Assembly: GCA_965220125.1 (NCBI GenBank) | Contig: CBDCPB010000004.1 | Coordinates: forward strand, 2,674,270 to 2,738,269 | DNA: 64,000 nt | Direction of reading: 5' to 3' | Source: Dehalococcoidia bacterium | GTDB taxonomy: Bacteria; Chloroflexota; Dehalococcoidia; UBA2979 | Program-made: the position numbers and the translations under genes | Notes under the pieces: generated by a model | What the model saw: the letters and a program-made list of their open reading frames with translations, nothing else | Told to the model about the DNA's origin: nothing | Databases searched by the model: none | Shown here: one piece after another, positions 1,726 through 25,888 of the stretch | Position numbering within the stretch: position 1 is the stretch's first letter | Layout: every line of letters begins with the position of its first letter

Positions 1726-1751
1726 GGAACGATCCGGCGCCCCGGCGCGTA
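1726..1751 (+). promoter_or_regulatory. ECF-type promoter candidate GGAAC-N17-CGTA upstream of the ECF sigma gene
   Basis: GGAAC at 1726..1730, a 17-nt spacer, then CGTA at 1748..1751, about 80 nt upstream of ATG 1833. The same architecture recurs at 4373..4398. Confidence 0.5.
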
Positions 1752-1832
1752 GTTACTATCAGGATGGTACTGGCGCGACTTGATGCGAGGCGCGAACACT
1801 ACCGCGGCCGGCCCGCGGAGGGTGAGGGGCGC

Positions 1833-4272: not shown

Positions 4273-4372
4273 CCACCACGGCCCGAGGTTCCGACCCGGT
4301 CAGACACCCGTGCATTGCGACGTGCCGGCGGCTGCGTCCCCCCGCGTGGGGGTCGGGCGGATCTGCGTGATT

Positions 4373-4398
4373 GGAACCGTTCGGCGATGACGTGCGTA
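4373..4398 (+). promoter_or_regulatory. second ECF-type promoter candidate GGAAC-N17-CGTA, upstream of the VWA lipoprotein gene
   Basis: GGAAC at 4373..4377, a 17-nt spacer, then CGTA at 4395..4398, about 105 nt upstream of ATG 4505. Same -35/-10 elements and spacing as 1726..1751. Confidence 0.5.
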
Positions 4399-4504
4399 TC
4401 TCCTGATATGAGGGCCCAGGCGACTCGCCAGCGGTTCTCTGCTGTCGACCGGCACGGGCCCGATGTCCGTCCCCCCTCAGACAGCACAGCCCAGGGAGGT
4501 TCCC

Positions 4505-6304
4505 ATGCGACTGGCAATACGGATGTACCGGATCCCCGCCGCGATCGCCGCGATCGCGATCCTCACGCTGGCGGTCGCCGCCTGCGGCGACGACGACGCT
4601 GACGAGGCGCGCGCGCCCGCCGCCACCGCCGCGCCGGCCCGTGCCGCGCCGGCCGCCACGGCGACCGCTGCCGCTACGGCGGCCCCCACCGCCGCCACGA
4701 TCCGCTCTGCCACGGCGGCCGCCACCGCTCGACCGGTACAGGCTGCCCCCTCACTGGCTACCCCCACGGCCACGGGGGCTCCCGCCGCACGGGCCACCGG
4801 CGCGCCGACCCCCGCCGCCGCGCCGGCAGAACAGCGGCCGGGGCCCACGGACACGACCTTCAGGAACTACGGGCGCACGCCGTTCGTCGATGCAGGCACG
4901 GACGCCGTCTCGACGTTCAGCCTCGACACGGACCGTACGTCCTACTTCCTCGCGCTCAACTGGGCGCAGAACGGCCTGGCGGTGGAGCCCGACTCGGTGC
5001 GTGCGGAGGAGTGGGTGAACGCCTTCGCCTACGGCTACGGCCTGCCTCGCGACGAGCGCAGCTTCGCGATCACGAGCGAGGTGGTGGAGCACCCCCTCGG
5101 AGGCGGGCGGCACCTCGCCCGCGTCGCCCTCCAGGCGCCGAGGCTGCGTGACAGCACACCCCTGAACGTGACGCTGGTGCTGGATGCATCAGGCTCGATG
5201 GCGGACGGGAACCGGGTCGCCATCGCCCGCGAGGCGGCTGAGACGATCCGCCAGAGCCTCAACTCGCGCGACCGCATCGCCGTCGTGCACTTCACTACCG
5301 ACGTGCTCAGTGCCTACACCGTGGAGCACAGCCGGCCCGACGACGGGGATGTCTCGCGCTCGATCGCGCGGCTCGGGCCGCACGGCAGCACGAACGTGCA
5401 GGCCGGGCTGAACCTCGGTGTGCGGCTCGCCGACGAGGCGCGCCGCGAGCGGCCGGACGCCTTCAACTACATCATCCTGATGTCCGACGGCGTCGCGAAC
5501 GTGGACGCGACGGACCCCTTCGCCATCCTCGAGTCGGCTCCGGACCACGACCGGCGGAACCCGTTGCGCCTGATCACGATCGGCGTGGGCATCGCCAACT
5601 ACAACGACTACCTGCTGGAGCAGCTGGCGCAGCACGGCAACGGCTGGTACCGCTACCTGGACGACACCGCGCAGGCGCGCTCGACCTTCAGCCGCGAGAA
5701 CTGGCTGACGCTGTCGACGCCCTTCGCCGACCAGGCGCGGGCGCAGGTGACCTGGGATCCGCGAGCTGTGCAGGCATGGCGCATCGTCGGCTACGAGAAC
5801 CGGATCACGCCGGACCACACCTTCGAGCAGAACCGCAGGGAGTTCGCCGAGCTTCCCTCCGGGTCCGCGACGACGGTGTTCTACGAGCTGGTGCTGCGCA
5901 ACGAAGCGCTCTACCGCTCAGCCGTGCTGGGCGAGATCGAGGCGCGCTGGGTCGATCCGTTCTCGGGCGACACGCTGAGCCAGCGGCTGGACGTGGCCGG
6001 GCGCACGGACGCGCCGTTCGACGCCGCTGACCGCCACTTCCGGCTCGGCGCGATCGTGGGGCTGGCGGCGGACCGCTACAGCGCGCTCTCGCCGCAGGTC
6101 GAGAACGCCGCGGTCGACGCCGGTGGCATCCACTTCGACCTCGCGGCACTGCTTGGGGAGCTCGACCTGCTGGGCGAGCGCTTCGGCGCCGCGCAGGCGT
6201 ACGGCGACTTCCGCTTCCTCCTGGACTGGCTGACGGCGGCCGCCGCGCAGCTGGCGCCTGCCGCGGGCTCTACCTCGGGCTCGTCCTCGGGCTACAGCCA
6301 GTGA
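4505..6304 (+). CDS. VWA-domain lipoprotein (YfbK-like: N-terminal vWF-associated region, VWA, C-terminal DUF3520-like region)
   Basis: ORF 4463..6304 trimmed to ATG 4505 (GGGAGG upstream). Lipobox LTLAVAAC is followed by an Ala/Thr/Pro linker. Contains STFSLDTDRTSYFLALNW...EEWVNAF, the MIDAS motif LVLDASGSMADGNR, and GYENR. Confidence 0.85.
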   Translation: MRLAIRMYRIPAAIAAIAILTLAVAACGDDDADEARAPAATAAPARAAPAATATAAATAAPTAATIRSATAAATARPVQAAPSLATPTATGAPAARATGAPTPAAAPAEQRPGPTDTTFRNYGRTPFVDAGTDAVSTFSLDTDRTSYFLALNWAQNGLAVEPDSVRAEEWVNAFAYGYGLPRDERSFAITSEVVEHPLGGGRHLARVALQAPRLRDSTPLNVTLVLDASGSMADGNRVAIAREAAETIRQSLNSRDRIAVVHFTTDVLSAYTVEHSRPDDGDVSRSIARLGPHGSTNVQAGLNLGVRLADEARRERPDAFNYIILMSDGVANVDATDPFAILESAPDHDRRNPLRLITIGVGIANYNDYLLEQLAQHGNGWYRYLDDTAQARSTFSRENWLTLSTPFADQARAQVTWDPRAVQAWRIVGYENRITPDHTFEQNRREFAELPSGSATTVFYELVLRNEALYRSAVLGEIEARWVDPFSGDTLSQRLDVAGRTDAPFDAADRHFRLGAIVGLAADRYSALSPQVENAAVDAGGIHFDLAALLGELDLLGERFGAAQAYGDFRFLLDWLTAAAAQLAPAAGSTSGSSSGYSQ

Positions 6305-6333
6305 GGTAGGGTCCCTCGCTCCGTGCGGGATGC

Positions 6334-6367
6334 CGGCCGCGGCGGTTATCACCAACCGCCGCGGCCG
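6334..6367. terminator. 12-bp perfect G/C hairpin between convergent genes
   Basis: CGGCCGCGGCGG (6334..6345) pairs with CCGCCGCGGCCG (6356..6367) around a 10-nt loop. It lies between the stop at 6304 (+) and the stop at 6409 (-). No clear U-tract. Confidence 0.45.
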
Positions 6368-6408
6368 TCCCTGTTTCAGGACGGTGGCGGCCGCCTGATG
6401 TGAGGAGC

Positions 6409-7641
6409 TCAGTGCGTGCTGACGAACTCATCGATCAGCGAATGGATCTGCTCGATGTCATCGGTCGGCACTGCGTGGTTCATCGGGAGGATGAGGCCGT
6501 ACTCCATGACGCGATCGGCGTTCGGGTAGCCCTCGGGAGCAGCCTTGTGGGCGGTGTCCCTGAACGCGGGCTGGCGGAGGATGTTGCCGGACCAGACCAT
6601 GCGCGTCTGGACGCCCCTGCTCTCCATGAACTGCTGGAACTCGGCCCGGTCGAAGCCGGCATCCTCGCGGATCATCAGCGGGTAGGAGATCCAGCTCGTC
6701 TTCAGCCCTTCCAGCTGCCGCGCCGGCACGAATCGCTCCCGGATGCGCTCGAGGTTGAAGAACTCCGTGTGCAGGTCGAAGCGGCGCTTGCGCGCCTCGT
6801 AGAACTCCTCGAGCCTGCCGAGTTGCACGAGCCCGAACGCGGCGTGCATCTCCGACGGCTCGAAGTTCCAGCCGACCTCGTCGAAGATGAAGTAGGTGTC
6901 GTAGGGGATGCCGTCGATCACCGCCTCGAAGCGGCCGCCCGAGCCCTGCTTCGAGCCGTACATCTGCACCTCGGAGGTGCGCCCCCAGCGGCGCAGCATC
7001 AGCGCCCGGTCCCACTCCTCCTCGCTGTTGACGGCGACCAGACCGCCGCTGCCTCCGCTGGTGATGATGTGCGAGCGGGCGAAGCTGGTCATGCTGATGT
7101 CGGTCCAGGTGCCGGTCGTCTGGCCGCGCAACTCCGCTCCGAGCGTGTCCGCCGAGTCCTCGATGACCTTGAGGTCGTGGCGGTCCGCGATCTCGCGGAT
7201 CCGCTCCCAGTCCGGCGCGTTGCCGATCAGGTTGGGGATCAGCATCGCCCGCGTGTTCGGCGTGATCATCTCCTCGATCTTGTCGACGTCGATGTTGTAG
7301 GTGTCGAACTCCACGTCCACGTACGAGGCGACGAACCCGCCGCGCACGATCGGCGCGAACGTGGCGGAGAAGCTGATGATCGAGGTGATGATCTCGCTCC
7401 CCGGCGGGAGGTCGAGGAGCTCGACGGCGAGGTACAGCGCCGAGGTGCCGGAGTTCGTCATGACGCCGTGCTTCTTGTCGAACATGGCCGCGACCCGGCG
7501 CTCCATCTCTCGCACGCGCGGGCCCACCTGCAACTCCGGCTCCGTGCGGAGCGCCTCGACGACTGCCGCGATCTCCTCCTCGCCGTAGATCGGATTCGTG
7601 TAGCGGACCGAGTACTGGCTCTCCTGACTCTCGTCTGACAT
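6409..7641 (-). CDS. DegT/DnrJ/EryC1-fold PLP/PMP enzyme, E1(RfbH)/ColD-like variant with His in place of the Schiff-base Lys
   Basis: Full-length 410-aa ORF. Contains TNSGTSALYLA, DSADTLGA, and SFARSHIITSGGSGG where aminotransferases of this fold have SFxxxK. WGR and NFEPSEMHAAFGLVQL are present as in sugar 3-dehydratases. Confidence 0.85.
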   Translation of the reverse strand: MSDESQESQYSVRYTNPIYGEEEIAAVVEALRTEPELQVGPRVREMERRVAAMFDKKHGVMTNSGTSALYLAVELLDLPPGSEIITSIISFSATFAPIVRGGFVASYVDVEFDTYNIDVDKIEEMITPNTRAMLIPNLIGNAPDWERIREIADRHDLKVIEDSADTLGAELRGQTTGTWTDISMTSFARSHIITSGGSGGLVAVNSEEEWDRALMLRRWGRTSEVQMYGSKQGSGGRFEAVIDGIPYDTYFIFDEVGWNFEPSEMHAAFGLVQLGRLEEFYEARKRRFDLHTEFFNLERIRERFVPARQLEGLKTSWISYPLMIREDAGFDRAEFQQFMESRGVQTRMVWSGNILRQPAFRDTAHKAAPEGYPNADRVMEYGLILPMNHAVPTDDIEQIHSLIDEFVSTH

Positions 7642-7842
7642 GGGGACGGCCCTTCTGCGGTGTAGCCGCGGAGTTGCGGGGGGAGCGCATGCTAGCGCGA
7701 CCGCGATGGCGCGTCGCGCCCCGCGCTCCCCCGCACAGGCGAGCGGCTCGGGCCCTCGCCGCGCGGAGCCGGGCGAGGCGGCCAGGCGCTACGCTGCCGG
7801 CGACGCCGGGCCGGCGAGGGCCGGCGCCCGAACGGAGGCGCG

Positions 7843-9123
7843 ATGCAAGCCGCCCTGGGCCGCGGAGGCGACCTCGTACGCGGCCGGCTGTTCTACGGCT
7901 GGTACATCGCGCTCGCCGGCGCGTTCACCAGCTTCCTCACGTTCGGTGTGGTCGGCTTCGGCTTCGGTGTGTTCATCGAGCCGATCCGCGAGGAGACCGG
8001 CTGGAGTCTGGCCGCGATCTCGGTGGGCTTCTCGCTGCGCAGTTTCGAGCACGGACTGCTCGCCCCCGTCACGGGCGCGCTCGTCGACCGGCTCGGAGCG
8101 CGCAGGATGGCGCTCAGCGGCGTGCTGATCGTCGGCATCGGGCTCGTGCTCTTCTCCCAGGCCCGCGTCCTCTGGGTCTACTACCTCGCGAGCCTCGTGA
8201 TCGCCTCCGGGGAGAGCCTCGGCTCCTCGACAGCGTACTCGGCGTCGCTGATGCGCTGGTTCGACCAGAAGCGAGGCCAGGCGCTCGGGCTGCTCGCCTC
8301 CGCGCGCGGGGCCGGCTACTTCATGGTGCCGGCGCTGGCAGTGCTGATCGGCGCGTTCGGCTGGCGGCCGACCCTGCTGGTCGCCGCGTTCGTCATCGTC
8401 GGCGTCGGGCTGCCGCTCTCGCTGGTGCTGCGCAACCGCCCAGAGCCGTACGGCTACCGCCCGGACGGAGAGCCGGCTCCGGCAACCCCGGCTGCCTCGC
8501 AGGCCGCAAGCTCGCTGGGCGACGGGATGACGGTCGCCGAGGCGCTGCACACGCCGGCCTTCTACCTGCTCGGGGGCGCCACCGCGATTGGCGCTGCGAC
8601 GCAGATCAGCTGGATCGTGCACCAGGTTCCGCACCTCCAGAACGTCGGCTTCTCGCTGCAGGGCGCGGCCCTGATTACCGGCGCCTACGGGCTGTTCCAG
8701 GTTCCCCTGCGCTTCATCTGCGGCTGGCTCGGCGACATCGTCGGCCGTCGCCGGCTCTACGTGATCTCCTACCTCCTGCAATGCGTCGGGATGCTGATCT
8801 TCGCGTCGCTCTCCTCCTCGCGGCTCTGGCTGCTGCCGCTCTACTTCCTCACCTACCCGTTCGCGCACGCGGCCTGGGTGGCGATGTTCATGACGCTGGT
8901 GGCCGACTACTTCGGGACGCGCTATTTCGCCACGATCCGCGGGCTGACCTCGACGCTGATGATGCCGCTCGGCTTCGCCGGGCCGGTCGTCGCCGGCTGG
9001 GCGTTCGACCAGACGGGGAGCTACCGCCTGGTGTTCACCTGCTACGCGCTGTTCACCCTCAGCGGTGCGATCTTCCTGCTGCTGATCCGGCGACCCACCT
9101 GGGCTCAGCTCGCCTCGCGCTGA
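7843..9123 (+). CDS. MFS transporter (oxalate/formate-antiporter-like subfamily)
   Basis: 426-aa hydrophobic ORF with GGAGG upstream of ATG 7843. N-terminus reads WYIALAGAFTSFLTFGVVGFGFGVFIEPIREETGWSLAAISVGFSL. Confidence 0.85.
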   Translation: MQAALGRGGDLVRGRLFYGWYIALAGAFTSFLTFGVVGFGFGVFIEPIREETGWSLAAISVGFSLRSFEHGLLAPVTGALVDRLGARRMALSGVLIVGIGLVLFSQARVLWVYYLASLVIASGESLGSSTAYSASLMRWFDQKRGQALGLLASARGAGYFMVPALAVLIGAFGWRPTLLVAAFVIVGVGLPLSLVLRNRPEPYGYRPDGEPAPATPAASQAASSLGDGMTVAEALHTPAFYLLGGATAIGAATQISWIVHQVPHLQNVGFSLQGAALITGAYGLFQVPLRFICGWLGDIVGRRRLYVISYLLQCVGMLIFASLSSSRLWLLPLYFLTYPFAHAAWVAMFMTLVADYFGTRYFATIRGLTSTLMMPLGFAGPVVAGWAFDQTGSYRLVFTCYALFTLSGAIFLLLIRRPTWAQLASR

Positions 9124-9150: not shown

Positions 9151-10524
9151 TCAGTCCGCGGCCAGCGCCTCGCGCAGCTCCGCCGCCACGCGCAGGGCGC
9201 GCGCAGCCTGCTCCGAGGCCTGGCGTGCGCTGTCGCCCGTGTAGCGCGTGGGATCGAGCATCTCCGCCAGGCGCTCCGCGCCGAGGCGCGCGGCGATCTC
9301 CTCGTCTCTCGCGAGCAGCGAGGCGAACGCCTCCCCGCTGGTGGCGGCTTCCTGCGCCGCCTCGTAGACGGCGTCGTGCGCGCGCTGCCGCCCGATCTCG
9401 CGCCCCAGCGCCAGCATGAGACTCTCCGACATGATCAGCCCGCCCGAGAGATCGAGGTTGCGCCGCATCCGCTCCGGGAAGACGCGCAGTCCCGCCGCCA
9501 CGTCGAGCAGGCGCACGAGGATGTCGCCGCTCAGTTCGAGCGCACGGCGCAGCGCGCGGTCGATCATCATCGAGCGGCTGCCGTCGGCCTCGTGATCGCC
9601 GAGCATCGCCTCGATCGCGAGCGGGACGAGCGATCGCAGCTCGGTCTCGTCCGCGATGATGTCCTGGCAGAGCTTCGGATTGCGCTTCTGGGGCATCGTG
9701 CTGCTGCCGACGGTGCCGGGCGAGACGGGCTCCTCGACCTCCGCGAACTCCTCCGACATGAGCGTGCGCACCTCGCGTGCGGCCTTGCCGCAGCTCGTGC
9801 CGAGCAGCGCGAGCGCGAGGACGTACTCCGTCATGTGGTCGTAGCTGGTGCGGCCGGGCAGCGGCATCGAGCCGAGCCCCAGCAGCTCGCCCATGCGGCG
9901 CTGCAGCGCGGGGCCGTGGCCCTCGAACGACGCGGCCGTGCCCGCGCCGCCGCCGAGCATCGCGACGAAGAGTCGCGGCTCGATCTGCCGTAGCCGCTCC
10001 GTGTGCCGGCACAGCTCGTCGATCCACACGGCGACCTTCGCGCCGAAGGTCGCCGGCACCGCGTGCTGGCCGTGCGTGCGGCCGGCGATCGCGTCGTCCT
10101 TCGTACGCTCGGCGAGGTCGGCGAACGCCTCGAGCAAGCCCGCGATCTCCGCGAGCACGATGCGGTGGGCCTTGCGGACCTGCAGCAGCAAGCCCGTCTG
10201 GGTGATGTTCTGCGTGGTCGCGCCCCAGTGCACGTAGCCCCCGGCGTCACCTTCGCAGAGCCGGTCGAGCTCCCAGACCAGCGGGACGAGGCCGTGCCCG
10301 GTCACGCGCAGCCCCTCGGTCACGCGATCGAGGTCGAACAGCTCGAGCCGCGCCTTGCGCTCGATCTCCGTCGCGGCCGAGGCGGGAATCATGCCGATCT
10401 CGGCCTGCGCCCGGGCCAGCGCGACCTCGACGTCGAGCCACGCCTGCCAGCGCGCGTCGCGCGCGAGGAGCTGCCGGATGCCGGGGTCGCGGACGCGCAG
10501 CGCGCTCGGTCGTTCTCCGCTCAT
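9151..10524 (-). CDS. fumarase/aspartase-superfamily lyase (adenylosuccinate lyase / 3-carboxymuconate cycloisomerase-like)
   Basis: ORF 9151..10638 trimmed to ATG 10524 (GAGGAG upstream). Signature GSSTMPQKRNP is present, plus TQNITQT and GRTHGQHAVPATFG. Confidence 0.88.
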   Translation of the reverse strand: MSGERPSALRVRDPGIRQLLARDARWQAWLDVEVALARAQAEIGMIPASAATEIERKARLELFDLDRVTEGLRVTGHGLVPLVWELDRLCEGDAGGYVHWGATTQNITQTGLLLQVRKAHRIVLAEIAGLLEAFADLAERTKDDAIAGRTHGQHAVPATFGAKVAVWIDELCRHTERLRQIEPRLFVAMLGGGAGTAASFEGHGPALQRRMGELLGLGSMPLPGRTSYDHMTEYVLALALLGTSCGKAAREVRTLMSEEFAEVEEPVSPGTVGSSTMPQKRNPKLCQDIIADETELRSLVPLAIEAMLGDHEADGSRSMMIDRALRRALELSGDILVRLLDVAAGLRVFPERMRRNLDLSGGLIMSESLMLALGREIGRQRAHDAVYEAAQEAATSGEAFASLLARDEEIAARLGAERLAEMLDPTRYTGDSARQASEQAARALRVAAELREALAAD

Positions 10525-10781
10525 CGTGTGCTCCTCGGCGCGCGCCGATGCTACGCGATCGGCGCTGCGCGTTCGGCGAGCCCGTCCGGTCCGAGGCATG
10601 ACGGCGGGTATGCGGCCGCTGCAGCCCGGCACGTCCACGGCCTGACGCCCCGCCGAAGCGGGCCTGCGTCGCCGGATCGCGCGCCCCCCGCTCGCCGGGC
10701 AGGCTCACCGCGCAACGAGTAGGATCGGGCGGCGCCGCGCCTGACTCGTAGCGCACGACCAGCCTCGAAGGAGCCGGAGCC

Positions 10782-12524
10782 ATGACGAACAGCAACGAGG
10801 GAGGCCGCTACCGGGTGGTCTGGCCGCGCAGCGCGAGGCAACTCCAGCCTCAGCCGCTCGCGCCACGGCTGGACACGCTGGCCGGCAAGACGGTCGCCCA
10901 GCTCTGGGACTACGTCTACCGCGGCGACGAGATCTTCGACCTGCTGGAGCCACAGCTCGAGGCGCGCTACCCCGGGGTCCGCTTCGTGAGCTGGCGCGAG
11001 TTCGGCTCCACGCACGGCTCCGAGGAGCGCGAGATTCTCGCCTCGCTGCCGCAGCGCTTCAAGGAGATGGGGGTCGACGCCGTCATCTCCGGGATGGGCT
11101 GCTGAGGGAGCTGCACGCCCGCCGTGATGCGGGCAAGTGCGGCGTGCGAGTTCGCGGGCGTCCCCACCTCGTCGCTCGTCTGCGAGGGGTTCATCGGCCA
11201 GGCCGGCACCACCTCGGAGGGCCTCGGACTGCCGAACCTGCCGCTCGCGCTGGTGCCGGGGCATGTCGGCAACCAGAGCGAGCAGGAGATGGAGCGCAAC
11301 GTCCGCGAGGTGACGCTGGACGCGGTCGTCGCGAATCTGCTCGAGGCGCCCGCGGACGCACCGGCCGTCGCCGAGCCCTCGCCGCGCGAGATCGTCTTCG
11401 ACGGCACGTTCGAGGAGGTCAACCGCTACTTCTACGAGTGCGAGTGGAGCGACGGGCTGCCGGTCGTGCCGCCGACCGTCGAGAAGGTCGCGGAGTTCCT
11501 CGGCTTCACCGATCGCGACCCCGACGAGATGATCGGCGTGATCCTGCCCGACAACCGCGCGGTCACCGTCTGGAGCGTCGCGGTCAACGGCGTGATGGCG
11601 GGCTGCCGGCCCGAGTACATGCCGGTGCTGCTCGCCCTCGCCGAGGCGATGGCCGATCCCGAGTACGGCGTGGAGCACAGCGGCAACACGCCGGGCGCCG
11701 AGACGCTGATCACGATCAACGGACCGATCGCGAGGGAGCTCGGCTTCAACTTCGAGCAGGGCGTCCTGCGCGACGGCTTCATCGCGAACACCTCGATCGG
11801 CCGCTTCTGGCGGCTCTACCTGCGCAACGTCGCCGGTTTCCTGCTGCACAAGAACGACAAGGGGACCTTCGGCAACACCTGGCGCGTGGTGCTGGCCGAG
11901 AACGAGGACGTGCTCGCCGAGATCGGCTGGCCGCCCACCAGCGTCGAGATGGGCTTCGAGGCGGGCGACAACACCGTCACCATCGCGCGCTACACCGGCG
12001 GCGACATGATGGCCTCGGTCTACGGCGATACGCCGGAGCTTGTCCTGCCGTACATCGCCGACGCGGTGCTGAAGCAGAACACCTGGCAGCTGATCTTCAC
12101 CGTCGGCAAGTCGATGGGCTCGCTGCGCCCGCTGCTGGTGCTGAGCCCGATCCTGGCGCAGACGATCGCGAAGGCCGGGTGGAGCAAGCAGGACGTCAAG
12201 CAGTACCTCTTCGACCACGCGCGGCTGCCCGCCTGGGAGTTCGAGCGCTACCTCGGCGACTGGACCGATCACGTGATCCGGTCGCTGGAGTCCGAGGTCA
12301 ACCTCGGCAGGATCCCGAGGGTGTTCCTCGAATCGGATGATCCGAACCGGCTCGTGCCGATCGTGTTCGAGCCCGACGACTTCATGATCGGGGTCGCCGG
12401 CGACCCGCTGCGCAACAACGCCTGCACCTTCGCGCACAACGGCAGGCTCGGCTACCCGGTGGCGAAGCAGATCCGTCTGCCCGCCGATTGGGAGACGCGG
12501 CTCGCCGGCGCGCAAACGGGCTGA
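10782..12524 (+). CDS. candidate selenoprotein: N-terminal domain with a C-U-G-S-C motif (UGA 11103..11105 read as Sec) fused to a ~470-residue domain of unknown family
   Basis: Track ORFs 10782..11105 and 11124..12524 share one frame and are separated only by TGA 11103..11105. AAGGAG precedes ATG 10782. Read through, the peptide is ...DAVISGMGC-U-GSCTPAVMRASAAC.... A SECIS-like hairpin follows the UGA. The alternative is two coupled genes, restarting at GTG 11124. Confidence 0.6.
11110..11143 (+). promoter_or_regulatory. SECIS-like stem-loop immediately 3' of the in-frame UGA
   Basis: GCU-GCAC-GCCCGC-[CGUGAU]-GCGGGC-AA-GUGC-GGC. 11117..11122 pairs with 11129..11134. 11113..11116 pairs with 11137..11140. 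11110..11112 pairs with 11141..11143 (one G.U). There is an AA bulge at 11135..11136. Pairing checked by hand. Confidence 0.55.
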
Positions 12525-12538
12525 CGGGACGGTCCGGG

Positions 12539-13462
12539 ATGGTGCGCCGCCGCGGCAGGTACGACGTCCTCGTGATCGGCGCTGGCGTCAGCGGCCTCAC
12601 GGCCGCGCACCACGCCGTCCGCTACGGCCTCAGCACCGCCTTGATCGAGGGCGAGCCGCTGTTCGGCGGGCAGATCGTGAACGTCGATCAACTCGACGGC
12701 TATCCGGCCGACGGCGAGCTCTCCGGCGTGTCGCTCGCCGTCGGCCTCTTCGAGGGGTGCCGCTCGCTTGGCGTCTCGATCATCCAGGCCCCGGTCGAGG
12801 CGCTCTCGGTCGAGGACGGAGGGCATCTCGCGATCGCGGGCGGCGAGCGGCATCGCGCGCGGGCGGTGGTCGTGGCCTCGGGCGCACGGCTCAAGCGGCT
12901 GGGCGTGCCCGGGGAACGCGAGTTGATCGACCGGGGCGTCTCGCAGTGCGCCTCGTGCGACGCGCCGCTGTTCCGCGACCAGGACGTCGCCGTGATCGGA
13001 GGCGGGGACGCGGCGGCGCAGGAGGCGCTCGTTCTGGCCGGCTTCTGCCGCAGGGTCTACGTCGTCGCCCGCAGCTCGCTCAGGGCGAAGGCGGACTACG
13101 TCAACCGGCTCTCGAGGCTCGACAACGTCGAGTTCGTCTGGGGCTGCGAGGTCGACGAAGTCCTCGGAAGCGGCCAGGTCGAGGGCGTGCGATTGCGCGG
13201 CGTCGGGGACGGCAGCGTCTCGGAGTTGGCCTGCACGGCCGTCTTCCCGTTCATCGGCTCCACCCCGAACAGCGAGTTCCTGCCGCCCGAGCTGGAGCGC
13301 GAGGACGGCTACATCGTCACCGACACGGCGTTCGCGACCTCGCTGCCGGGTGTCTTCGCCGCCGGCGCCGTGAGGCGCGGCTACGGCGGCCATGTCGCCG
13401 AGGCAGTCGGCGAGGCCGTCTCCGCGGCGAGCGCCGCTGTCCGCTACGTTCGAGGCGAGTGA
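12539..13462 (+). CDS. low-molecular-weight thioredoxin-reductase-like flavoprotein disulfide reductase
   Basis: ORF 12488..13462 trimmed to ATG 12539. FAD motif DVLVIGAGVSG, redox-active C-A-S-C (VSQCASCDAPLF; TrxB has CATC), NAD(P)H motif VAVIGGGDAAAQEA, and C-terminal GVFAAGAV. Confidence 0.85.
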   Translation: MVRRRGRYDVLVIGAGVSGLTAAHHAVRYGLSTALIEGEPLFGGQIVNVDQLDGYPADGELSGVSLAVGLFEGCRSLGVSIIQAPVEALSVEDGGHLAIAGGERHRARAVVVASGARLKRLGVPGERELIDRGVSQCASCDAPLFRDQDVAVIGGGDAAAQEALVLAGFCRRVYVVARSSLRAKADYVNRLSRLDNVEFVWGCEVDEVLGSGQVEGVRLRGVGDGSVSELACTAVFPFIGSTPNSEFLPPELEREDGYIVTDTAFATSLPGVFAAGAVRRGYGGHVAEAVGEAVSAASAAVRYVRGE

Positions 13463-13499
13463 TCGGCGGAGCCGGAGCGAGCTACCGCGAGCACGGGGC

Positions 13500-14441
13500 T
13501 CAGTAGCCCTCCTCGATGTCCACGACCCCTTCGAGCGGTTCGCCCGCCAGGTAGTGGCGCAGATTCGCGATGAAGATATCGACGATCCGATCGCGCCCCG
13601 CCGGCATGCTCCATGAGAGGTGGGGGGTGATCCGCGCGCGCGGGTGCGAGTAGAGCCAGTGCCCGGCCGGCAGCGGCTCCGGCTCGACCGTATCGAGCGA
13701 GGCCATCGCGACGCGCCCGTCATCGAGCGCCTCGCGCAGTGCCTCCTGGTCGACCAGCGTCCCGCGCGCGACGTTGACCAGGTGCACGCCCGGCTTCAGC
13801 TGCGCGAGGGCGGCTCGGTCGATCAGGTGGTGGGTGGCGGCGGTCGCCGGGGCGGCGAGCACGAGGTGGTCCGCCTCCCGCAGCAACTCACCGAGGTCGC
13901 TTGCCAACTCGACGCCTGGCGCCTCGCTCGGCCGCGGGCGGCGGCGCAGGGCGAGCACCCGCATCCCGAAGGGCAGCGCCCGCTCGGCGAGGGCGGCGCC
14001 GATGCCGCCCAGCCCCACCAGTCCCAGCGTCTTTCCGGACAGCGTCCCGAGCCCCGGGTCGACGCGTCGATCGGGTCGCTCGTGGATCCACGTCTGCGGC
14101 AGCCGCTTCTCGAAGGCGAGCATCGTGGCCATCACCCACTCGGCGATCGGCACGCCGCTCGCGCCGCGTGAGCAGCTGAGGGTCTGACCGTCATCGAGCA
14201 GCTCGATCGGGAACTCGTCGACGCCGGTGCCGTAGATGTGGATCCAGCGAACGCCGCTGCGCAGCGCCTCCTCCATGATCGGCACGCTGCGCGCGCCCAC
14301 CAGCAGCACCTCGCCGTCGGCGTCCTCCGGGAACGGGCCACGCGCCGGGATGTGGATCAGCTCGACGCCCTCGACCTCGCGCGTCACGCGTTCGGTCATC
14401 TCGGGTGGCATCCATGTCAGCACGCGGAGGGGAGCGCTCAC
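13500..14441 (-). CDS. D-isomer-specific 2-hydroxyacid dehydrogenase family, NAD-binding
   Basis: 313-aa ORF with a GTG start and AAGGAG upstream. Contains GKTLGLVGLGGIGAALA, LVNVARGTLVD and ITPHLS. Confidence 0.88.
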   Translation of the reverse strand: MSAPLRVLTWMPPEMTERVTREVEGVELIHIPARGPFPEDADGEVLLVGARSVPIMEEALRSGVRWIHIYGTGVDEFPIELLDDGQTLSCSRGASGVPIAEWVMATMLAFEKRLPQTWIHERPDRRVDPGLGTLSGKTLGLVGLGGIGAALAERALPFGMRVLALRRRPRPSEAPGVELASDLGELLREADHLVLAAPATAATHHLIDRAALAQLKPGVHLVNVARGTLVDQEALREALDDGRVAMASLDTVEPEPLPAGHWLYSHPRARITPHLSWSMPAGRDRIVDIFIANLRHYLAGEPLEGVVDIEEGY

Positions 14442-15966: not shown

Positions 15967-16077
15967 CCGGCGAACGCGGGCGGGGCGCGTCCCTTCGCGG
16001 GCGCTCCCCCGCCGCGCGGTGTGCCGGAGGGCCGAACGGAGCAACGCCAGGGATCAGATCCGCAAGGGGGGCATCGG

Positions 16078-17961
16078 ATGAACGACGAACGCGAGCTTGC
16101 ACGGCTCATGGGGGTGCTCACCACCCGACGATCCCTGCTGCGCGGCGCGGCGCTCGGCGGCGCCGGGCTCGCCGCCGCGGCGCTGATCGGCTGCGGCGAC
16201 GAGGAAGAGGAGCCGCCCGCCCCAGCCGCGACGGCCACACAAGCCGCGGCCGCCACGCCCACGGCCACACAAGCCGCGGCCGCCACGCCCACGGCTACAC
16301 AGGCCGCAGCCGCCGCGCCCACGGCCACGCCGACCGAGGCGGCGCCCGCGGAGCCGGACTACGCCGCGCAGGCACTCGCAGACGGCGCGCCCTTCCCGTA
16401 CGGCTACGCCGAGCCCGAGGGGGCGCCGAAGGCCGGCGGGATACTGCGTATCTCCCTCCTCTATCGCGGGACGCCAGCGACGTTTGACACAGGAAAGCAG
16501 CTTGAGCTTGCGGCCTCGACGGCGACGTTCTCAGCGGACCGCCTGGTTGGGTTCGCGACCGGGCAGGATCTGGGTAAGTACGTTCCGAAGACTCAGCCGG
16601 AGCTCGCGAAGTCCTGGGAGGTGAGCCCAGACGGTCTCGAATTCACGTTCGATCTGGAGCCGAACGTCAACTACCAGAATGTGGCGCCGGTCAACGGCAG
16701 GCCGTTCATCGCGCAGGACGTAAAGCTGACCTACGAGCGGCATGCGGCAGGGGGCCTGAACCAGGCCTTCTTCGCGTACGCGGACTCCTTCACCGTGGTC
16801 GACGACCAGACGTTCACCATCCAGATGAGATCGCCGGACGCGGACCTGCCCGTGGCGCTCGCCAGCCGCCAACTACCGATCTACGCGCCTGAGCTGTGGG
16901 ACGACGGGTCGATCGACACGATGGCCATCGGCACAGGCCCCGCGATACTCACGGACGTGGAGAAGGAAGCGCAGGTGACCTTCGAGTCGAACCCCGACTA
17001 TTGGCAGGGGAAACCGTACCTCGACGGCGCGGAGCTGGTCATCATCCCCGATGTCGCCGCGCGGCTCGCCGAGTACCGGGTGGGCAGGCTCGATCATGCC
17101 AATAGCATCGTCAGAAACAAGGATCAGGCCGACGGGCTGATCGAGAGCAACCCCGGCACGCGGATCACGTCGGATCCGATTACGAACGCCATCAGCTTCT
17201 TCGCGTTCAACACCGATCACCCGAAGCTGCAGGACGACAGGGTGCGTCAAGCGATGTCGCTGGCGCTGGACCGGGAAGAGATGGTCCAGATTCTGTCCGG
17301 AGGCCTGGGCAGGGTGCTCCCGGTGTTCCTCTGGCCGCTGGTATTCGACGAGGAGCCGTCGGGGGACGAGCTCGGTCGCTGGTGGCGGCACGACCCAGCC
17401 GAGGCGAAGAAGCTCGTGCAGGCGGCCGGCGCGGACGGCGTCAGCTTGACGACCTTGTTTACGCCGTCGTACGGGGCCAGCCAGCCCAACAACATCGCGT
17501 TCGTGAGTTCGCCCTGGAAAGAGATCGGCATCAATCTCGAGTCCCAGGACGTGGACTTCCAGACATTCTCCGCGTTGCGCTTCACGAGCAAGTTCAGGGA
17601 TGACCCTGACAGCCAGATGATGCAGGGGTACTCGACGGCCGCGCCGACGGCAAAGGGCTCGTTCTTCGATCTGGTGCACTCGCAGTCCTCACAGAACGTG
17701 CACACGGTCAAGGATCCGGACATCGATACCTGGGCTGAGCAGGCGGTCGGCGAATTCGACCCGGAGGCGCGTCGCGAGCTGCATCGCAAGATCTGGGACC
17801 GCGAGCTGGACCGGGTGCTCCGCCTGTCCATGTCTCAGACGTTCAACTACACGCCGGTGCAACCGTGGCTCAGGTACTACCGGTGGAATGGAGCATTCAT
17901 TTCCGTGTACCACACCTTCGATTGGGGCTTTGGCTACCACAAGGCGTGGCTGGACAAGTAG
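16078..17961 (+). CDS. ABC transporter substrate-binding lipoprotein, family 5 (peptide/nickel/opine type)
   Basis: ORF trimmed to ATG 16078. Tat motif TRRSLLRG, lipobox AALIGC, Ala/Thr/Pro linker, then a family-5 SBP body (WQGKPYLDG..., FNTDHPKLQDDRVRQA). Confidence 0.9.
   Translation: MNDERELARLMGVLTTRRSLLRGAALGGAGLAAAALIGCGDEEEEPPAPAATATQAAAATPTATQAAAATPTATQAAAAAPTATPTEAAPAEPDYAAQALADGAPFPYGYAEPEGAPKAGGILRISLLYRGTPATFDTGKQLELAASTATFSADRLVGFATGQDLGKYVPKTQPELAKSWEVSPDGLEFTFDLEPNVNYQNVAPVNGRPFIAQDVKLTYERHAAGGLNQAFFAYADSFTVVDDQTFTIQMRSPDADLPVALASRQLPIYAPELWDDGSIDTMAIGTGPAILTDVEKEAQVTFESNPDYWQGKPYLDGAELVIIPDVAARLAEYRVGRLDHANSIVRNKDQADGLIESNPGTRITSDPITNAISFFAFNTDHPKLQDDRVRQAMSLALDREEMVQILSGGLGRVLPVFLWPLVFDEEPSGDELGRWWRHDPAEAKKLVQAAGADGVSLTTLFTPSYGASQPNNIAFVSSPWKEIGINLESQDVDFQTFSALRFTSKFRDDPDSQMMQGYSTAAPTAKGSFFDLVHSQSSQNVHTVKDPDIDTWAEQAVGEFDPEARRELHRKIWDRELDRVLRLSMSQTFNYTPVQPWLRYYRWNGAFISVYHTFDWGFGYHKAWLDK
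16231..16320 (+). repeat. 30-bp tandem repeat (3 copies) inside the SBP linker
   Basis: ACGGCCACACAAGCCGCGGCCGCCACGCCC at 16231..16260 is identical at 16261..16290. The third copy (16291..16320) has a few substitutions. Encodes TATQAAAATP three times. Confidence 0.9.
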
Positions 17962-18150
17962 CGCTCGCTCGGTGGCGGGACGATCGCCAGGGTGCGACAT
18001 CCCCCGGCGATCGTCGCCGTGCGGAGCTGGCGCAGGGTTTCGTAGGCCCCGGCCTCTGCAGGACGAGGGGCGCCGGTTGTCGTCAGCCCCGGATGAGCGC
18101 GCCCAGCGATCTCATCGTGCGCGCATCGCGCGTTTGGATTGAACGGGACG

Positions 18151-19113
18151 ATGGGTAAGTACATCATCCAGCGGGTTCTGGCCTCGATTCCGTCGCTCCT
18201 CGTGGTGTCGGTAGTCATCTTCGGGCTGCTGCGACTGATCCCGGGCGATGTGGTGATGGCGCGGCTCGCGGACACCGGGGGTGGCCGCGCATACGTCTCC
18301 CAGGAAGACCTGGACAGGATGCGGCACGAGCTTGGGCTCGACCGCAACCCGGTGGTCGAATATGTCGATTGGGTGACCGGCGTGGTCAGGGGGGACTTCG
18401 GGAACTCGCTCTGGACGTCGGATGACGTGCTCTCGACCATGATTGATCGCATGGGCGTCTCGCTGCAGATCGCCGTCATGGCGATGGTGATCGCGATCGT
18501 CATCGCGATTCCCATCGGGATAATCTCCGCGGTGAACCAGGACACCTGGCTCGACTATGGCGCCCGGCTGTTCTCCATCATGGGCCTCTCGATCCCGGAC
18601 TTCTGGATCGCCACCGTGCTGCTGCTGGTGCTGTCGCTCTACATCGGTTGGCTTCCGCACTTTGGATGGTATGCACCCTGGGAGGACCCGTGGAGGAACT
18701 TCCAGGCGCTCATCTTTCCCGCGCTCATCGTCGGCTATCGCTTCTCCGCGGTAAGCGCACGCATGATGCGGTCGGCCATGCTCGAGGTGTTGCGCGAGGA
18801 CTACGTGCGAACCGCGCGGGCCAAGGGCCTCGGCGAACGAACCGTGATCATGAAGCACGCGATGCGAAACGCGGTGATCCCGGTGCTCACGATCATGGGC
18901 ACGCAGGTGAGCTTCCTGATCGGCGGCCTTGTGATCATCGAGCAGATCTTCCGTCTGCCGGGGATGGGAAGACTTGCGTTCGACGCAGTCGAGCGCCGCG
19001 ACTACCCGGTCGTGCAGGGGACGGTGATGCTGATGGCCGGAATCTTCATTTTCGTGAATCTGGCCGTCGATCTGACGTACGCCGTCATCGACCCCCGCAT
19101 CCGCTACTCCTGA
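18151..19113 (+). CDS. ABC transporter permease (DppB/OppB-like)
   Basis: MGKYIIQRVLASIPSLLVVSVVIFGLLRLIPGD N-terminus, and the EAA-loop region EDYVRTARAKGL. Confidence 0.9.
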   Translation: MGKYIIQRVLASIPSLLVVSVVIFGLLRLIPGDVVMARLADTGGGRAYVSQEDLDRMRHELGLDRNPVVEYVDWVTGVVRGDFGNSLWTSDDVLSTMIDRMGVSLQIAVMAMVIAIVIAIPIGIISAVNQDTWLDYGARLFSIMGLSIPDFWIATVLLLVLSLYIGWLPHFGWYAPWEDPWRNFQALIFPALIVGYRFSAVSARMMRSAMLEVLREDYVRTARAKGLGERTVIMKHAMRNAVIPVLTIMGTQVSFLIGGLVIIEQIFRLPGMGRLAFDAVERRDYPVVQGTVMLMAGIFIFVNLAVDLTYAVIDPRIRYS

Positions 19114-19154
19114 GGGCGGCGGCCGGACCAGACTGACGAAGAAGGCAGCAGCCA

Positions 19155-20057
19155 ATGCGAACAGCGACCACGGCGGCGCCACCCGAGATCAGGGAGTTCG
19201 CGCGGAAGCAACGTCACCCTGCGGCCGACGTGTTCATCCGCATCATCAGGCAGCCGTTCGGGGCGGTCTTCGGGCTCATGATTCTCGGGCTCATCTTCAT
19301 GGCGATTACTGCTCCGTGGATTGAACCGTACGATCCCCTCGATCTCTCGGTAGACATATTCACGGGCCCGAGTCTCAGGCACCCGTTCGGCACTGACGAT
19401 CTCGGACGTGATCAGCTGAGCCGCATCATCGACGGCTCGCGCATGTCCCTCTACGTGGGTCTCCTCTCGGTATTCGCAGGCACCCTGACTGGATCGTTCG
19501 TGGGGCTGGTGAGCGGGTTCCTGGGCGGCAAATTCGATCTCGCGGTGCAGCGCGTGGTCGACGGCATGCTCTCCTTTCCCGGCATCGTCCTTGCGATGGC
19601 GCTGGTGTCCGTGCTGGGCACGAACACCACGAACGCCGTGCTCGCGATCGCCATCGTCATCGCGCCGAGCAACTCTCGCGTCATCCGCTCGGCCGTACTG
19701 TCCGTGAAGCAGAACGTCTTCGTGGAGGCGGCGCGGGCGACGGGTGCGAGCGACAGGCGCGTGATGTTCCGCCACATCCTCCCGAACGTCGTGGCGCCGA
19801 TCCTGATCCTGGTCTCCGCCCTGCTCGGGGCCGCGATCCTGATCGAAGCGTCGTTGAGCTTCCTCGGGCTCGCGACGCAGCCACCAGACTCCTCGTGGGG
19901 GCTGATGCTGTCGACGTCCGGCCGGGAATACATGGAGATCGCGCCCTGGCTCGCGATCTTCCCCGGCCTCGCGATCAGCCTGACGGTGCTCTCCTTCAAC
20001 CTGTTTGGTGACGTAGTGCGCGACGTCCTCGACCCCCGGCTGCGCGGCGCGAGATAG
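19155..20057 (+). CDS. ABC transporter permease (DppC/OppC-like)
   Basis: HPFGTDDLGRDQLSRI, FVEAARATGAS and FNLFGDVVRDVLDPRL. Confidence 0.9.
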   Translation: MRTATTAAPPEIREFARKQRHPAADVFIRIIRQPFGAVFGLMILGLIFMAITAPWIEPYDPLDLSVDIFTGPSLRHPFGTDDLGRDQLSRIIDGSRMSLYVGLLSVFAGTLTGSFVGLVSGFLGGKFDLAVQRVVDGMLSFPGIVLAMALVSVLGTNTTNAVLAIAIVIAPSNSRVIRSAVLSVKQNVFVEAARATGASDRRVMFRHILPNVVAPILILVSALLGAAILIEASLSFLGLATQPPDSSWGLMLSTSGREYMEIAPWLAIFPGLAISLTVLSFNLFGDVVRDVLDPRLRGAR

Positions 20058-20100: not shown

Positions 20101-21300
20101 ATGCCAGGACCGCTCGATGGAATCCGCATCCTGGACTTCACCCGCTACCAGAACGGCCCCCACGCCACGGCGATGCTGTCCGACATGGGCGCCGACGTGC
20201 TCAAGGTCGAACTGCCGGGCGACGGTGATCCGGGGCGCTCGCTCGGCCGCCTGCCGGACGGCTTCTGCTCCTACTTCGAGGGCAACAACCGCGGCAAGCG
20301 CAGCATCACGCTCGACCTCCGCAAGCCCGAGGCGCGCGAGATCGTCTGCAAGCTCGTGGCCGAGGTCGACGTCGTCACCGAGAACTTCCGGCAGGGCGTG
20401 ATGGACGGACTCGGACTGGGCTACGAGGAACTGCGCAAGCACAACGAGCGGCTGATCTACGGCTCCACCACCGGCTTCGGGCCGATAGGTGAGTGGGCGC
20501 GGCGCGCCTCCTTCGATCACATCGCGCAGGGCATGAGCGGCGCCCTGATCGCCCAGGGCGGCGGGCCCGGCAAAGAGCCGCAGGCCGTGCAGTGGGGCCT
20601 CGCCGACCAGTCGGGGAGCATTGTCTTCGCCTACGGGATCATGGCGGCGATCGTCGCGCGCGAGCGCTTCGGCACGGGCCAGCGGGTCGACGCCTCGCTG
20701 CTCGGCAGCATGATGACCGTGCAGAACCTGACGCTGGCGAACTTCCTGCACACCAAACACCAGGAGGTCCGCGAGGGCTCCGGGGGCTACAACCAGGCCG
20801 CCTTCGGCTGGCACCAGGCCGGCGACGGCAAGTGGCTGACCGTCGGCGTCCTCGATCCGAAGGACTGGCCCGGCCTCTGCCGCGCGATCGGCCGCGAGGA
20901 CCTGATCAGCGACGAGCGCAGCGCCGACGCGTTCGCCCGCCGCGAGCACGCCGAGTGGCTCCTGGCGGAGGTGAAAGGGACGCTGCTGACCAGGCCGAGG
21001 CAGTACTGGCTGGACCGGATGCTGGCGGAGGGCGTGCCCTGCGGCCCGGTCCTCGAGTACGCGGAGGTGCTCGACGAGCCGCAGTTCTGGGAGAACGGCT
21101 ATATCGTCGAGGTCGAGCACCCCCAGTTCGACGACTACCTGTCGGTGGGCGTGCCCGTCCGCTTCAGCGAGACCCCGGGCGCCGTGCAGGGCGCGGCGCC
21201 GGAACTCGGCCAGCACACCGAGGAGGTGCTGCTGAGCCTCGGCTACGACTGGACGGAGATCGAGCGGCTGCACGACGAGCGCGTGATCGCCGCGGGCTGA
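20101..21300 (+). CDS. family III CoA-transferase (CaiB/BaiF/Frc family)
   Basis: GIRILDFTRYQNGPHATAMLSDMGADVLKVE and NRGKRSITLDL. 399 aa. Confidence 0.9.
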   Translation: MPGPLDGIRILDFTRYQNGPHATAMLSDMGADVLKVELPGDGDPGRSLGRLPDGFCSYFEGNNRGKRSITLDLRKPEAREIVCKLVAEVDVVTENFRQGVMDGLGLGYEELRKHNERLIYGSTTGFGPIGEWARRASFDHIAQGMSGALIAQGGGPGKEPQAVQWGLADQSGSIVFAYGIMAAIVARERFGTGQRVDASLLGSMMTVQNLTLANFLHTKHQEVREGSGGYNQAAFGWHQAGDGKWLTVGVLDPKDWPGLCRAIGREDLISDERSADAFARREHAEWLLAEVKGTLLTRPRQYWLDRMLAEGVPCGPVLEYAEVLDEPQFWENGYIVEVEHPQFDDYLSVGVPVRFSETPGAVQGAAPELGQHTEEVLLSLGYDWTEIERLHDERVIAAG

Positions 21301-21356
21301 GCACCACAAGGGAGCGCTTGCCGGCCCGCCGGCCGCCGCTCGCGAGAAGGGATCGA

Positions 21357-25861: not shown

Positions 25862-25888
25862 GGTTCACCCCCGCCAAGAGGCTTGCGC

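Follow-up and report, generated by a model that had tools for sequence, protein, structure and literature searches.

UGSC proteins were first noted in 2007 as 'a selenoprotein of unknown function' (PMC1976440). Their fusion to a second domain, Unknown_1, was reported in 2008 by Zhang and Gladyshev in the selenoproteome of Global Ocean Sampling (GOS), in which forms with selenocysteine (Sec) were far more numerous than forms with cysteine (Cys) and in which UGSC-containing proteins, with 255 Sec sequences, ranked with the most abundant aquatic selenoproteins and led all families outside the marine samples (PMC2398784). UGSC proteins were still counted among the functionally uncharacterised selenoproteins in a 2026 review (PMC13188914). 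Here we analyse a UGSC–Unknown_1 selenoprotein gene, and the gene for a thioredoxin reductase (TrxR)-like flavoprotein directly downstream of it, in a 64,000-nucleotide stretch of a Dehalococcoidia bacterium genome (assembly GCA_965220125.1, contig CBDCPB010000004.1, positions 2,674,270 to 2,738,269). We refer to this whole stretch as the window and give all positions in its coordinates. The two genes are linked in several bacterial phyla, and, judging from sequence and gene order, it is reasonably likely that the flavoprotein is the dedicated reductase of the selenoprotein.

The selenoprotein shares with the described UGSC family the U-G-S-C motif, a Pfam match, the fusion to Unknown_1 with its conserved Cys and the predominance of Sec over Cys forms; it differs in belonging to a long fused subfamily, whereas the stand-alone protein of that family has ~147 residues. 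An initial annotation of this DNA had treated the selenoprotein as unknown and knew of no described system of such composition. The selenoprotein is not unknown, as it belongs to a known family (PF24696) whose fusion was described in 2008 (PMC2398784). In the searchable literature, we found no mention of a flavoprotein partner of UGSC or of its embedding in sel operons. The selenoprotein and its fusion are already known; what appears to be new is that UGSC has a conserved partner in a specialised TrxR-like clade and that this clade is embedded in sel operons.

The closest described flavoprotein systems are TrxB–TrxA, the clostridial Grd and Prd systems, and AhpF–AhpC. Our flavoprotein has the two-domain FAD/NAD(P)H architecture of TrxB, with a CxxC at the canonical place in the pyridine-nucleotide domain. 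However, the HRRxxxR motif for the 2'-phosphate is absent here, the 'GD' motif is replaced by G-A-x-R, there is no thioredoxin (Trx) gene, and the presumed substrate would be a Sec domain of non-Trx fold. In the clostridial Grd and Prd systems, a U-x-x-C selenoprotein (GrdB or PrdB) is likewise encoded beside a TrxR-type flavoprotein, the grd operon holding trxB–trxA, and the use of NAD(P)H to reduce a selenenylsulfide, which we propose here, would be a further likeness. The differences are as follows: GrdA, the pyruvoyl subunit GrdE/PrdA, PrdC and thioredoxin are all missing among the neighbours in the window, and GrdA, GrdE/PrdA and thioredoxin are not among the recurrent neighbour clusters of related loci; Unknown_1 has no detectable similarity to Grd or Prd components; and the sampled carriers are mostly Proteobacteria and Dehalococcoidia, not amino-acid-fermenting Firmicutes. 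AhpF–AhpC resembles the proposed pair in that a flavoprotein homologous to TrxR serves a single redox partner that is encoded alongside and is not a thioredoxin, but neither the N-terminal double-Trx-fold domain of AhpF nor a peroxiredoxin is present here. By these features, the pair lies outside the TrxB, AhpF–AhpC and Grd/Prd systems, and the selenoprotein lies within the UGSC Pfam family.

Selenocysteine decoding in the UGSC gene

The selenoprotein gene has the following features:

10767–10773, forward strand: Shine–Dalgarno-like GAAGGAG, 8 nt upstream of the ATG at 10782, read from the sequence
10782–12524, forward strand: UGSC–Unknown_1 fusion selenoprotein gene, 580 residues, Sec at residue 108
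11103–11105, forward strand: UGA codon of Sec108, in the motif U108-G-S-C111 (Cys111 codon at 11112–11114)
11110–11143, forward strand: hairpin resembling a selenocysteine insertion sequence (SECIS), with a 7-bp lower stem, a 2-nt bulge, a 6-bp upper stem and the loop CGUGAU

A single frame runs from the ATG at 10782 to the TGA at 12522–12524, with a lone internal TGA at 11103–11105 whose flanking codons give C107-U108-G-S-C111. The GC content of third codon positions (GC3) is 0.94 before the internal TGA and 0.96 after it. Full-length homologues read through this position with a Cys codon (TGT/TGC), and TGA is found at the Sec position in 80 of 80 related loci from species-representative genomes. 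There are more than 5000 homologues; most of the best 120 have ~465 residues and are called from a start codon 3' of the TGA, and about 13 of these 120 are ~580 residues long and carry Cys at the TGA position (A-C-G-S-C or C-C-G-A-C). C107 is not conserved, being Ala in most Cys forms, and the centre is therefore U108-x-x-C111. Thus, the selenoprotein candidate put forward in the initial annotation is borne out, whereas its C-U-G-S-C centre stands for U108 and C111 only.

The hairpin is conserved. Over 47 aligned sequences, its pairing is retained in 88.8% of cells, a share that falls to 52.8% or less once the 3' partner is shifted, and compensatory changes occur at two pairs. The upper stem is paired in 98% of cells among 42 Sec forms and in 57% among five Cys forms. 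No variation is seen in the Sec forms (n = 42) at the third codon positions of alignment columns 21, 24, 27 and 30, which lie in the apical loop and in the upper stem's 3' arm, whereas these positions vary freely in the five Cys forms. Such a contrast is what a SECIS that overlaps coding sequence should leave. The folding energy of the single sequence relative to shuffles (z = 0.01) is uninformative at 70% GC. A search of Rfam for a SECIS family returned nothing relevant either at E ≤ 10 for the region or at gathering thresholds for the whole window; we did not count this null result against a SECIS and relied instead on the comparative pair counts and on the contrast between Sec and Cys forms.

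As in other bacterial selenoprotein genes, the UGA lies opposite Cys and is accompanied by a conserved, covarying SECIS whose apical loop contains a G; selA, selB, selD and tRNA-Sec adjoin the orthologue in many proteobacterial loci. The comparative case that UGA 11103–11105 encodes Sec is strong. Were the TGA at 11103 a true stop, 10782–11105 and 11124–12524 would be two genes or a pseudogene, which is how gene callers split the locus and would account for the prevalence of the ~465-residue downstream open reading frame (ORF) among database entries and for the lack of an Rfam SECIS family here. It would not account for the shared frame, the equal GC3 and the continuous Cys forms, for a TGA and hairpin conserved across phyla with synonymous sites frozen in Sec forms only, or for the tRNA-Sec, selA, selB and selD genes that adjoin many of the related loci, and we give this explanation a negligible chance.

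A distinct clade of TrxR homologues

The flavoprotein gene and its motifs are arranged as follows:

12539–13462, forward strand: TrxR-like flavoprotein gene, 307 residues, Pyr_redox_2
12578–12595, forward strand: FAD motif GAGVSG
12947–12958, forward strand: C137-A-S-C140, at the aligned place of the redox-active CxxC in solved TrxRs
12998–13015, forward strand: NAD(P)H motif GGGDAA
13064–13087, forward strand: VARSSLRA, replacing HRRxxxRA
13364–13375, forward strand: GAVR, replacing the FAD 'GD' motif

The flavoprotein gene shares the strand of the selenoprotein gene; its ATG at 12539 starts 15 nt past the last base of the selenoprotein stop codon (14 nt of intergenic DNA), and nothing resembling a terminator was found in between. 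The spacing, the strand, the FAD and NAD(P)H motifs and the C-A-S-C are as the initial annotation had read them.

Along its whole length, the flavoprotein can be aligned with solved TrxRs of low molecular mass (low-Mr TrxRs), at ~40% identity (best E = 4e-56). It has the CxxC and the glycine motifs of TrxB, but it scores 254.4 bits against TIGR01292 (TrxB), under the cut-off of 343.45, and has neither HRRxxxR nor GD. The AhpF model scores 190 bits over the TrxR-like part. The UGSC-linked flavoproteins have x-R-S-x-L-R/K-A where solved TrxRs have hRRdxLRA, and G-A-V-R at the FAD motif where solved TrxRs have G-D-V-R. Among the 120 best flavoprotein homologues, CxxCD is present in all 120, HRR in none and G-A-x-R in 115. 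Members are named 'FAD-dependent oxidoreductase' at NCBI and 'thioredoxin reductase (NADPH)' at JGI. By this signature, the flavoprotein is a member of a distinct clade of low-Mr TrxR homologues. With HRR lost, the preferred nucleotide may be either NADPH or NADH.

Conserved linkage of the two genes

We collected loci seeded from UGSC and, separately, from the flavoprotein, each set being the best 80 matches from a larger pool (at least 594 and at least 441 confirmed, respectively). Among the 80 UGSC-seeded species-level loci, the flavoprotein gene lies within 7 kb in 36, nearly always directly adjacent. It is found at 5/5 loci in Chloroflexi, 18/22 in Alphaproteobacteria, 6/8 in Gammaproteobacteria, 1/1 in Acidobacteria and 6/41 in Betaproteobacteria; the first four taken together have it at 30 of 36 loci. 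It is found in 0/3 contigs labelled Streptomyces or Streptomycetaceae. The proteins of these three UGSC-bearing contigs, which come from metagenome-assembled genomes (MAGs; L023, L044 and L054), are 66–68% identical to proteobacterial forms; two of the contigs are short, and errors in binning may lie behind their taxonomic assignment.

Four layouts occur, with the flavoprotein gene directly downstream, downstream past an Unknown_1 paralogue, directly upstream on the same strand, or divergent. Of 65 loci holding both genes, 58 have them on one strand, with the flavoprotein gene downstream in 31 and upstream in 27; in the other 7 the strands are opposite. The closest spacers are mostly 14–130 nt. 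Chance pairing is excluded, the expectation for any TrxB-like gene near a random locus being below 1% by a rough estimate rather than a computed one. Divergence of the two proteins is correlated (r = 0.52), but phylogeny was uncontrolled in this comparison and it is not used as evidence.

The linkage extends to natural Cys forms. Five of six such proteins (P0046, P0024, P0078, P0058 and P0045) have a Pyr_redox_2 gene adjoining on the same strand, and the sixth locus has no flavoprotein gene; at the four Cys-form loci with DNA, the neighbour belongs to the same clade by tblastn (45–50% identity, CxxCD, GAVR). For P0046, the two genes occupy 7001–8755 and, downstream, 8800–9717 of L161. No sel genes were found within 6–7 kb of those five loci, and neither sel genes nor tRNA-Sec within 7 kb of UGSC in Dehalococcoidia and Chloroflexi relatives. 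In the 64 kb window, we found none of selA, selB, selC or selD (selD by tblastn) and no tRNA gene. Because Cys forms and Chloroflexi have the pair without nearby sel genes, the partnership appears independent of selenium, which in turn favours a dedicated reductase over a role in selenium assimilation. Thus, the neighbourhood that the initial annotation had described at one locus is conserved in Chloroflexi, Alpha-, Beta- and Gammaproteobacteria and Acidobacteria, in several gene orders, and with Cys in place of Sec.

Association of the flavoprotein with sel operons

A metagenome scan with the clade alignment gave the 80 flavoprotein-seeded loci (42–61% identity), of which 34 have adequate flanks (≥1.5 kb on each side). 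Within these 34, UGSC/Unknown_1 and selA–selB are both present at 14, selA–selB only at 14 and UGSC/Unknown_1 only at 6, and no locus has neither; UGSC/Unknown_1 is thus found at 20 and selA–selB at 28. Over all 80 loci, selA or selB is found in 48. The selA–selB genes usually lie ~20–350 nt upstream of the flavoprotein gene, and the usual order in contigs that carry Bug-family neighbours, and so probably come from Betaproteobacteria, is selA–selB–flavoprotein–tRNA-Sec. The flavoprotein clade is tied to selA–selB–selC at least as tightly as to UGSC. The unlinked UGSC loci of Betaproteobacteria suggest that genomes with selA–selB–flavoprotein only may carry UGSC elsewhere.

The selA–selB–flavoprotein–tRNA-Sec order with no UGSC within 6 kb is seen in L084, L094, L108, L135, L140, L149, L152 and L156; in L108, selA is at 2445–3884, selB at 3973–5982, the flavoprotein gene at 5995–6906 and tRNA-Sec at 7024–7118. 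We found no description, in the searchable literature, of a non-machinery gene between selB and tRNA-Sec.

Some hosts have the whole set in one place. In L017, a compact Sec island of ~7 kb (1698–8879) comprises selD on the reverse strand, selA, selB, the flavoprotein gene and the UGSC–Unknown_1 gene on the forward strand, and tRNA-Sec on the reverse strand. Compact islands are also found in L020, L052 and L110, the hosts being Gamma- and Alphaproteobacteria. This arrangement suggests joint inheritance, and perhaps joint transfer, of the Sec machinery and this single client enzyme.

An association of this kind would also arise if the flavoprotein were an accessory of the Sec trait, for example one that supplies SelD with selenide by reducing selenite, selenotrisulfides or Se(0), and came to lie near UGSC only by way of 'Sec islands'. 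The frequency of selA–selB (28/34 loci) and of selA or selB (48/80) would fit such a role, as would the position of tRNA-Sec directly after the flavoprotein gene in many loci and the compact islands of L017, L020 and L052. Thioredoxin systems are known to turn selenite into selenide in vitro. However, the flavoprotein gene adjoins five of six Cys forms without sel genes (four of them confirmed as the same clade), in Chloroflexi it accompanies UGSC and not sel genes, and to our knowledge the canonical sel operons of other bacteria have no such gene. We consider an accessory role unlikely.

Much less probable still is an ordinary housekeeping thioredoxin reductase with incidental adjacency, an outcome that the initial annotation had named as one that would overturn its reading. 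The ~40% full-length identity to solved TrxRs and the JGI naming of relatives are what such an enzyme would give, but the TIGR01292 score is below cut-off, HRR and GD are lost clade-wide in favour of a signature of its own, the adjacency recurs in at least four phyla and several gene orders, and 34/34 flavoprotein-seeded loci with adequate flanks have a UGSC or Sec context.

Architecture of the selenoprotein

The selenoprotein comprises two domains:

10815–11330 (residues 12–183), forward strand: UGSC domain, Pfam PF24696, 107.6 bits against a cut-off of 25
11379–12506 (~residues 200–575), forward strand: Unknown_1 domain, with the motifs DGLP(V/I)VPPT and NGVMAGC275RPEY (Cys275 codon at 11604–11606)

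The NCBIfam equivalog NF041046 (~147 residues) scores 53.7 bits, under its cut-off of 125, and since the protein is moreover a 580-residue fusion, we assign it to a related long fused subfamily and not to the equivalog. Homologues have C-G-S/A-C at the UGSC motif. PrdB (TIGR04483) gives a weak local match around Sec (16 bits, E = 0.005, residues 88–139), and Pfam gives none to GRDB (PF07355).

An AlphaFold2 (AF2) model of the full-length Cys homologue P0024 (predicted local distance difference test score (pLDDT) 83.7, predicted template modelling score (pTM) 0.86) suggests that the UGSC domain is parallel α/β with a flavodoxin-like fold. In the model, the U/C-x-x-C lies between a strand and the N terminus of a helix, in a parallel β–α–β pattern, and fold searches with the domain return CheY-like and flavodoxin-like domains (weak matches), not thioredoxins. 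A 'Trx-like fold' had been proposed for the family in 2008 (PMC2398784), in contrast to the flavodoxin-like α/β arrangement predicted here.

Unknown_1 (~390 residues) has no match in Pfam or NCBIfam, and none in Pfam even at E ≤ 10 for the domain and four paralogues. A single profile match in the PDB, at E = 0.41, was set aside as chance. Modelled alone from the window sequence, the domain reaches a pLDDT of 84.9; Foldseek searches of the PDB with the full-length and domain-only models returned nothing at E ≤ 1e-3. Kinship with class I fumarate hydratases, suggested by the top-ranked Foldseek matches (E ~0.01), was rejected as non-significant (template modelling (TM) score ≤0.32, root mean square deviation 13–19 Å).

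The Unknown_1 superfamily numbers 4393 clusters at 50% identity (E ≤ 1e-3). Residues kept in the fused proteins and in 46 paralogues include D224-G-L-P, N269, G274-C275, N336, G340-R341, R344, N349, E373 and W383, Cys275 being the sole universally conserved cysteine beyond the UGSC motif. No informative domain fusion was found among the 4393 clusters, in which the only additions are extra UGSC/Unknown_1 units and one Cu_amine_oxidN1 tail. Proteins with multiple UGSC and/or Unknown_1 units include P0077 (861 residues), P0295 (1254), P0307 (1226) and P0306 (845); the Cu_amine_oxidN1 domain is at the C terminus of P0307, and none of these multi-unit proteins is fused to a domain of known catalytic function.

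UGSC and Unknown_1 are either fused or encoded by adjacent split genes. Because they occur fused or adjacent, because long members hold only these domains and because the conserved residues are shared, we regard the two as an obligate functional pair. A split version is found in L042 (8745–12576), where a D-U-G-S-C selenoprotein (~220 residues) is followed by an Unknown_1-like protein and then by selB; this split pair, in Burkholderiales, lies directly 3' of a fused gene, and similar arrangements are seen in L036, L039, L050 and L060. A divergent subfamily of the L042 type occurs in fused form in L082 (5236–6870), as a second fused subfamily.

Proposed electron path

The initial annotation had reported that no thioredoxin or glutaredoxin gene is nearby, and each of our checks agrees with this. 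A tblastn search of the 64 kb window with Escherichia coli TrxA found no TrxA gene: the best match (E = 0.03) is short, at 44 residues, and lies outside any Trx-like gene. No protein with a WCGPC or CPYC-type motif was found in the window, Pfam annotation of the neighbours within ~8 kb shows no Trx or glutaredoxin (Grx), and neither is among the recurrent neighbour families of the 80 loci.

In the mechanism that we propose, NAD(P)H would reduce the FAD of the flavoprotein, and the FAD would reduce the C137/C140 disulfide. With no thioredoxin in between, the resulting dithiol would directly reduce the Sec108–Cys111 selenenylsulfide, and the selenolate/thiol pair so formed, perhaps with Cys275 as a relay, would then reduce a substrate bound by Unknown_1. 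The analysis establishes Sec decoding, the pairing of the domains, a distinct flavoprotein clade and the conserved operonic linkage; that electrons pass directly and in this direction, from which nucleotide, to what substrate and by what chemistry are parts of the proposal.

Alternatively, the flavoprotein may reduce a Trx-like mediator encoded elsewhere, which would in turn reduce UGSC, as in the clostridial TrxB–TrxA–GrdA chain. All characterised low-Mr TrxRs known to us act on Trx-fold proteins or domains; the flavoprotein is fully TrxR-like in its CxxC and architecture, and the UGSC model does not have a Trx fold. Against a mediator, there is no Trx or Grx in the 64 kb window or among the recurrent neighbours of the 80 loci, and the substitutions specific to the clade suggest an altered partner. 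A mediator, like an accessory role in the Sec trait, seems to us improbable.

Several observations nevertheless weigh against a dedicated, directly acting reductase of UGSC–Unknown_1. The proposed electron transfer between the two proteins is deduced from synteny, and both locus samples consist of the 80 best matches out of many more. In 44/80 UGSC loci, mainly betaproteobacterial, there is no flavoprotein gene within 7 kb. Conversely, 14/34 flavoprotein loci have no UGSC within 6 kb, the flavoprotein gene lying between selB and tRNA-Sec, and loci of this kind fit a role in selenium metabolism equally well. The predicted UGSC fold is flavodoxin-like and not that of Trx, so that a homologue of TrxR would have to dock in a new way to act on it. 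Finally, the aspartate of 'GD' is replaced by Ala clade-wide (115/120).

Flanking genes and the rest of the window

The pair is flanked by two genes on the opposite strand:

9151–10524, reverse strand, divergent from the pair: adenylosuccinate lyase (ASL)/CMLE-family lyase (Lyase_1 and ADSL_C in Pfam, with an NCBIfam match)
13500–14441, reverse strand, convergent with the pair: D-2-hydroxyacid dehydrogenase (Pfam 2-Hacid_dh_C)

Both genes exist as the initial annotation had described them, but they cannot be kept as members of a conserved system. The lyase gene is near UGSC in just 2/80 loci, at differing positions, and is rearranged even in the closest Dehalococcoidia; the position of the dehydrogenase gene is retained only in the Dehalococcoidia relatives L001, L002, L004 and L009. 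As their conservation is limited to the nearest relatives, we reject the two enzymes as parts of the pathway. Across the 80 loci (ORFs called by our own GC3-filtered picker, long antisense ORFs being typical of high-GC DNA), the recurrent neighbours are Bug/TctC, short-chain dehydrogenase/reductase (SDR), CoA-transferase III, TauD, acyl-CoA dehydrogenase, 2-hydroxyacid dehydrogenase and amidohydrolase_2 families, together with SelB. SelB apart, these are generic catabolic-island genes and give no specific clue to the substrate.

The window has a GC content of 69.7% and no Rfam matches, and its nearest kin are Dehalococcoidia and Chloroflexi MAGs (88–96% protein identity). It is a dense catabolic and uptake region, with at least three SBP_bac_5/Opp-type ABC uptake systems (16021–20054, 31243–37687 and 50753–54596, the first by Pfam), a sulfatase gene (33313–35571, by Pfam) and amidohydrolase_2 genes; none of these is conserved beside UGSC elsewhere. 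A CoA-transferase III gene (20101–21300, forward strand; Pfam, 377 bits) is followed by a gene for an enzyme resembling those dependent on thiamine diphosphate (~21390–23042, forward strand, by translation), and the layout of 20101–23042 recalls formyl-CoA transferase paired with oxalyl-CoA decarboxylase or 2-hydroxyacyl-CoA lyase. Two further genes, at 56245–57528 and 57529–58797 (reverse strand), are putatively CoA-transferase III-like by their N-terminal sequence.

Four genes on the reverse strand at 46290–50429 form a molybdenum hydroxylase cluster like those of CO dehydrogenase and xanthine dehydrogenase (by Pfam), encoding a CoxG-like protein and the [2Fe-2S] small, molybdopterin large and FAD-binding medium subunits. 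At 24662–29394, an ImpB/MucB/SamB gene (Y-family polymerase-like, reverse strand) abuts a gene for a DnaE-type DNA polymerase III α-subunit (forward strand, 1192 residues); this looks like a damage-inducible mutagenesis pair, though divergently oriented. Finally, a Gp49-like gene (HigB-type toxin family) followed by an HTH_3 gene at 44428–45178 (forward strand) is a likely toxin–antitoxin pair, and a lone HTH_3 gene is found at 41743–42033 (reverse strand).

Implications

A dedicated flavoprotein partner would supply the missing electron donor for an abundant group of selenoproteins. The pair lends itself to a simple reconstituted assay with the flavoprotein, NAD(P)H and either a U108C variant or a natural Cys-form protein, and the gene set is carried by the cultured bacteria Steroidobacter flavus CGMCC 1.10759 (L019) and Novosphingobium sp. 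MW5 (L028). The analysis also delimits a TrxR-like clade whose members are now annotated automatically as 'thioredoxin reductase' or as a generic 'FAD-dependent oxidoreductase'. A non-machinery gene within selA–selB–selC operons bears on how the Sec trait spreads and is retained.

More broadly, and more tentatively, the pair could be an unrecognised and widespread two-component, NAD(P)H-driven Sec reductase, in which a TrxR homologue would have been retargeted from thioredoxin to a flavodoxin-like Sec domain and with which the Sec machinery travels as a compact island in many Proteobacteria; we see this as a real possibility that falls a little short of probable. If it is true, the island-bearing bacteria would keep Sec decoding largely for this single enzyme.

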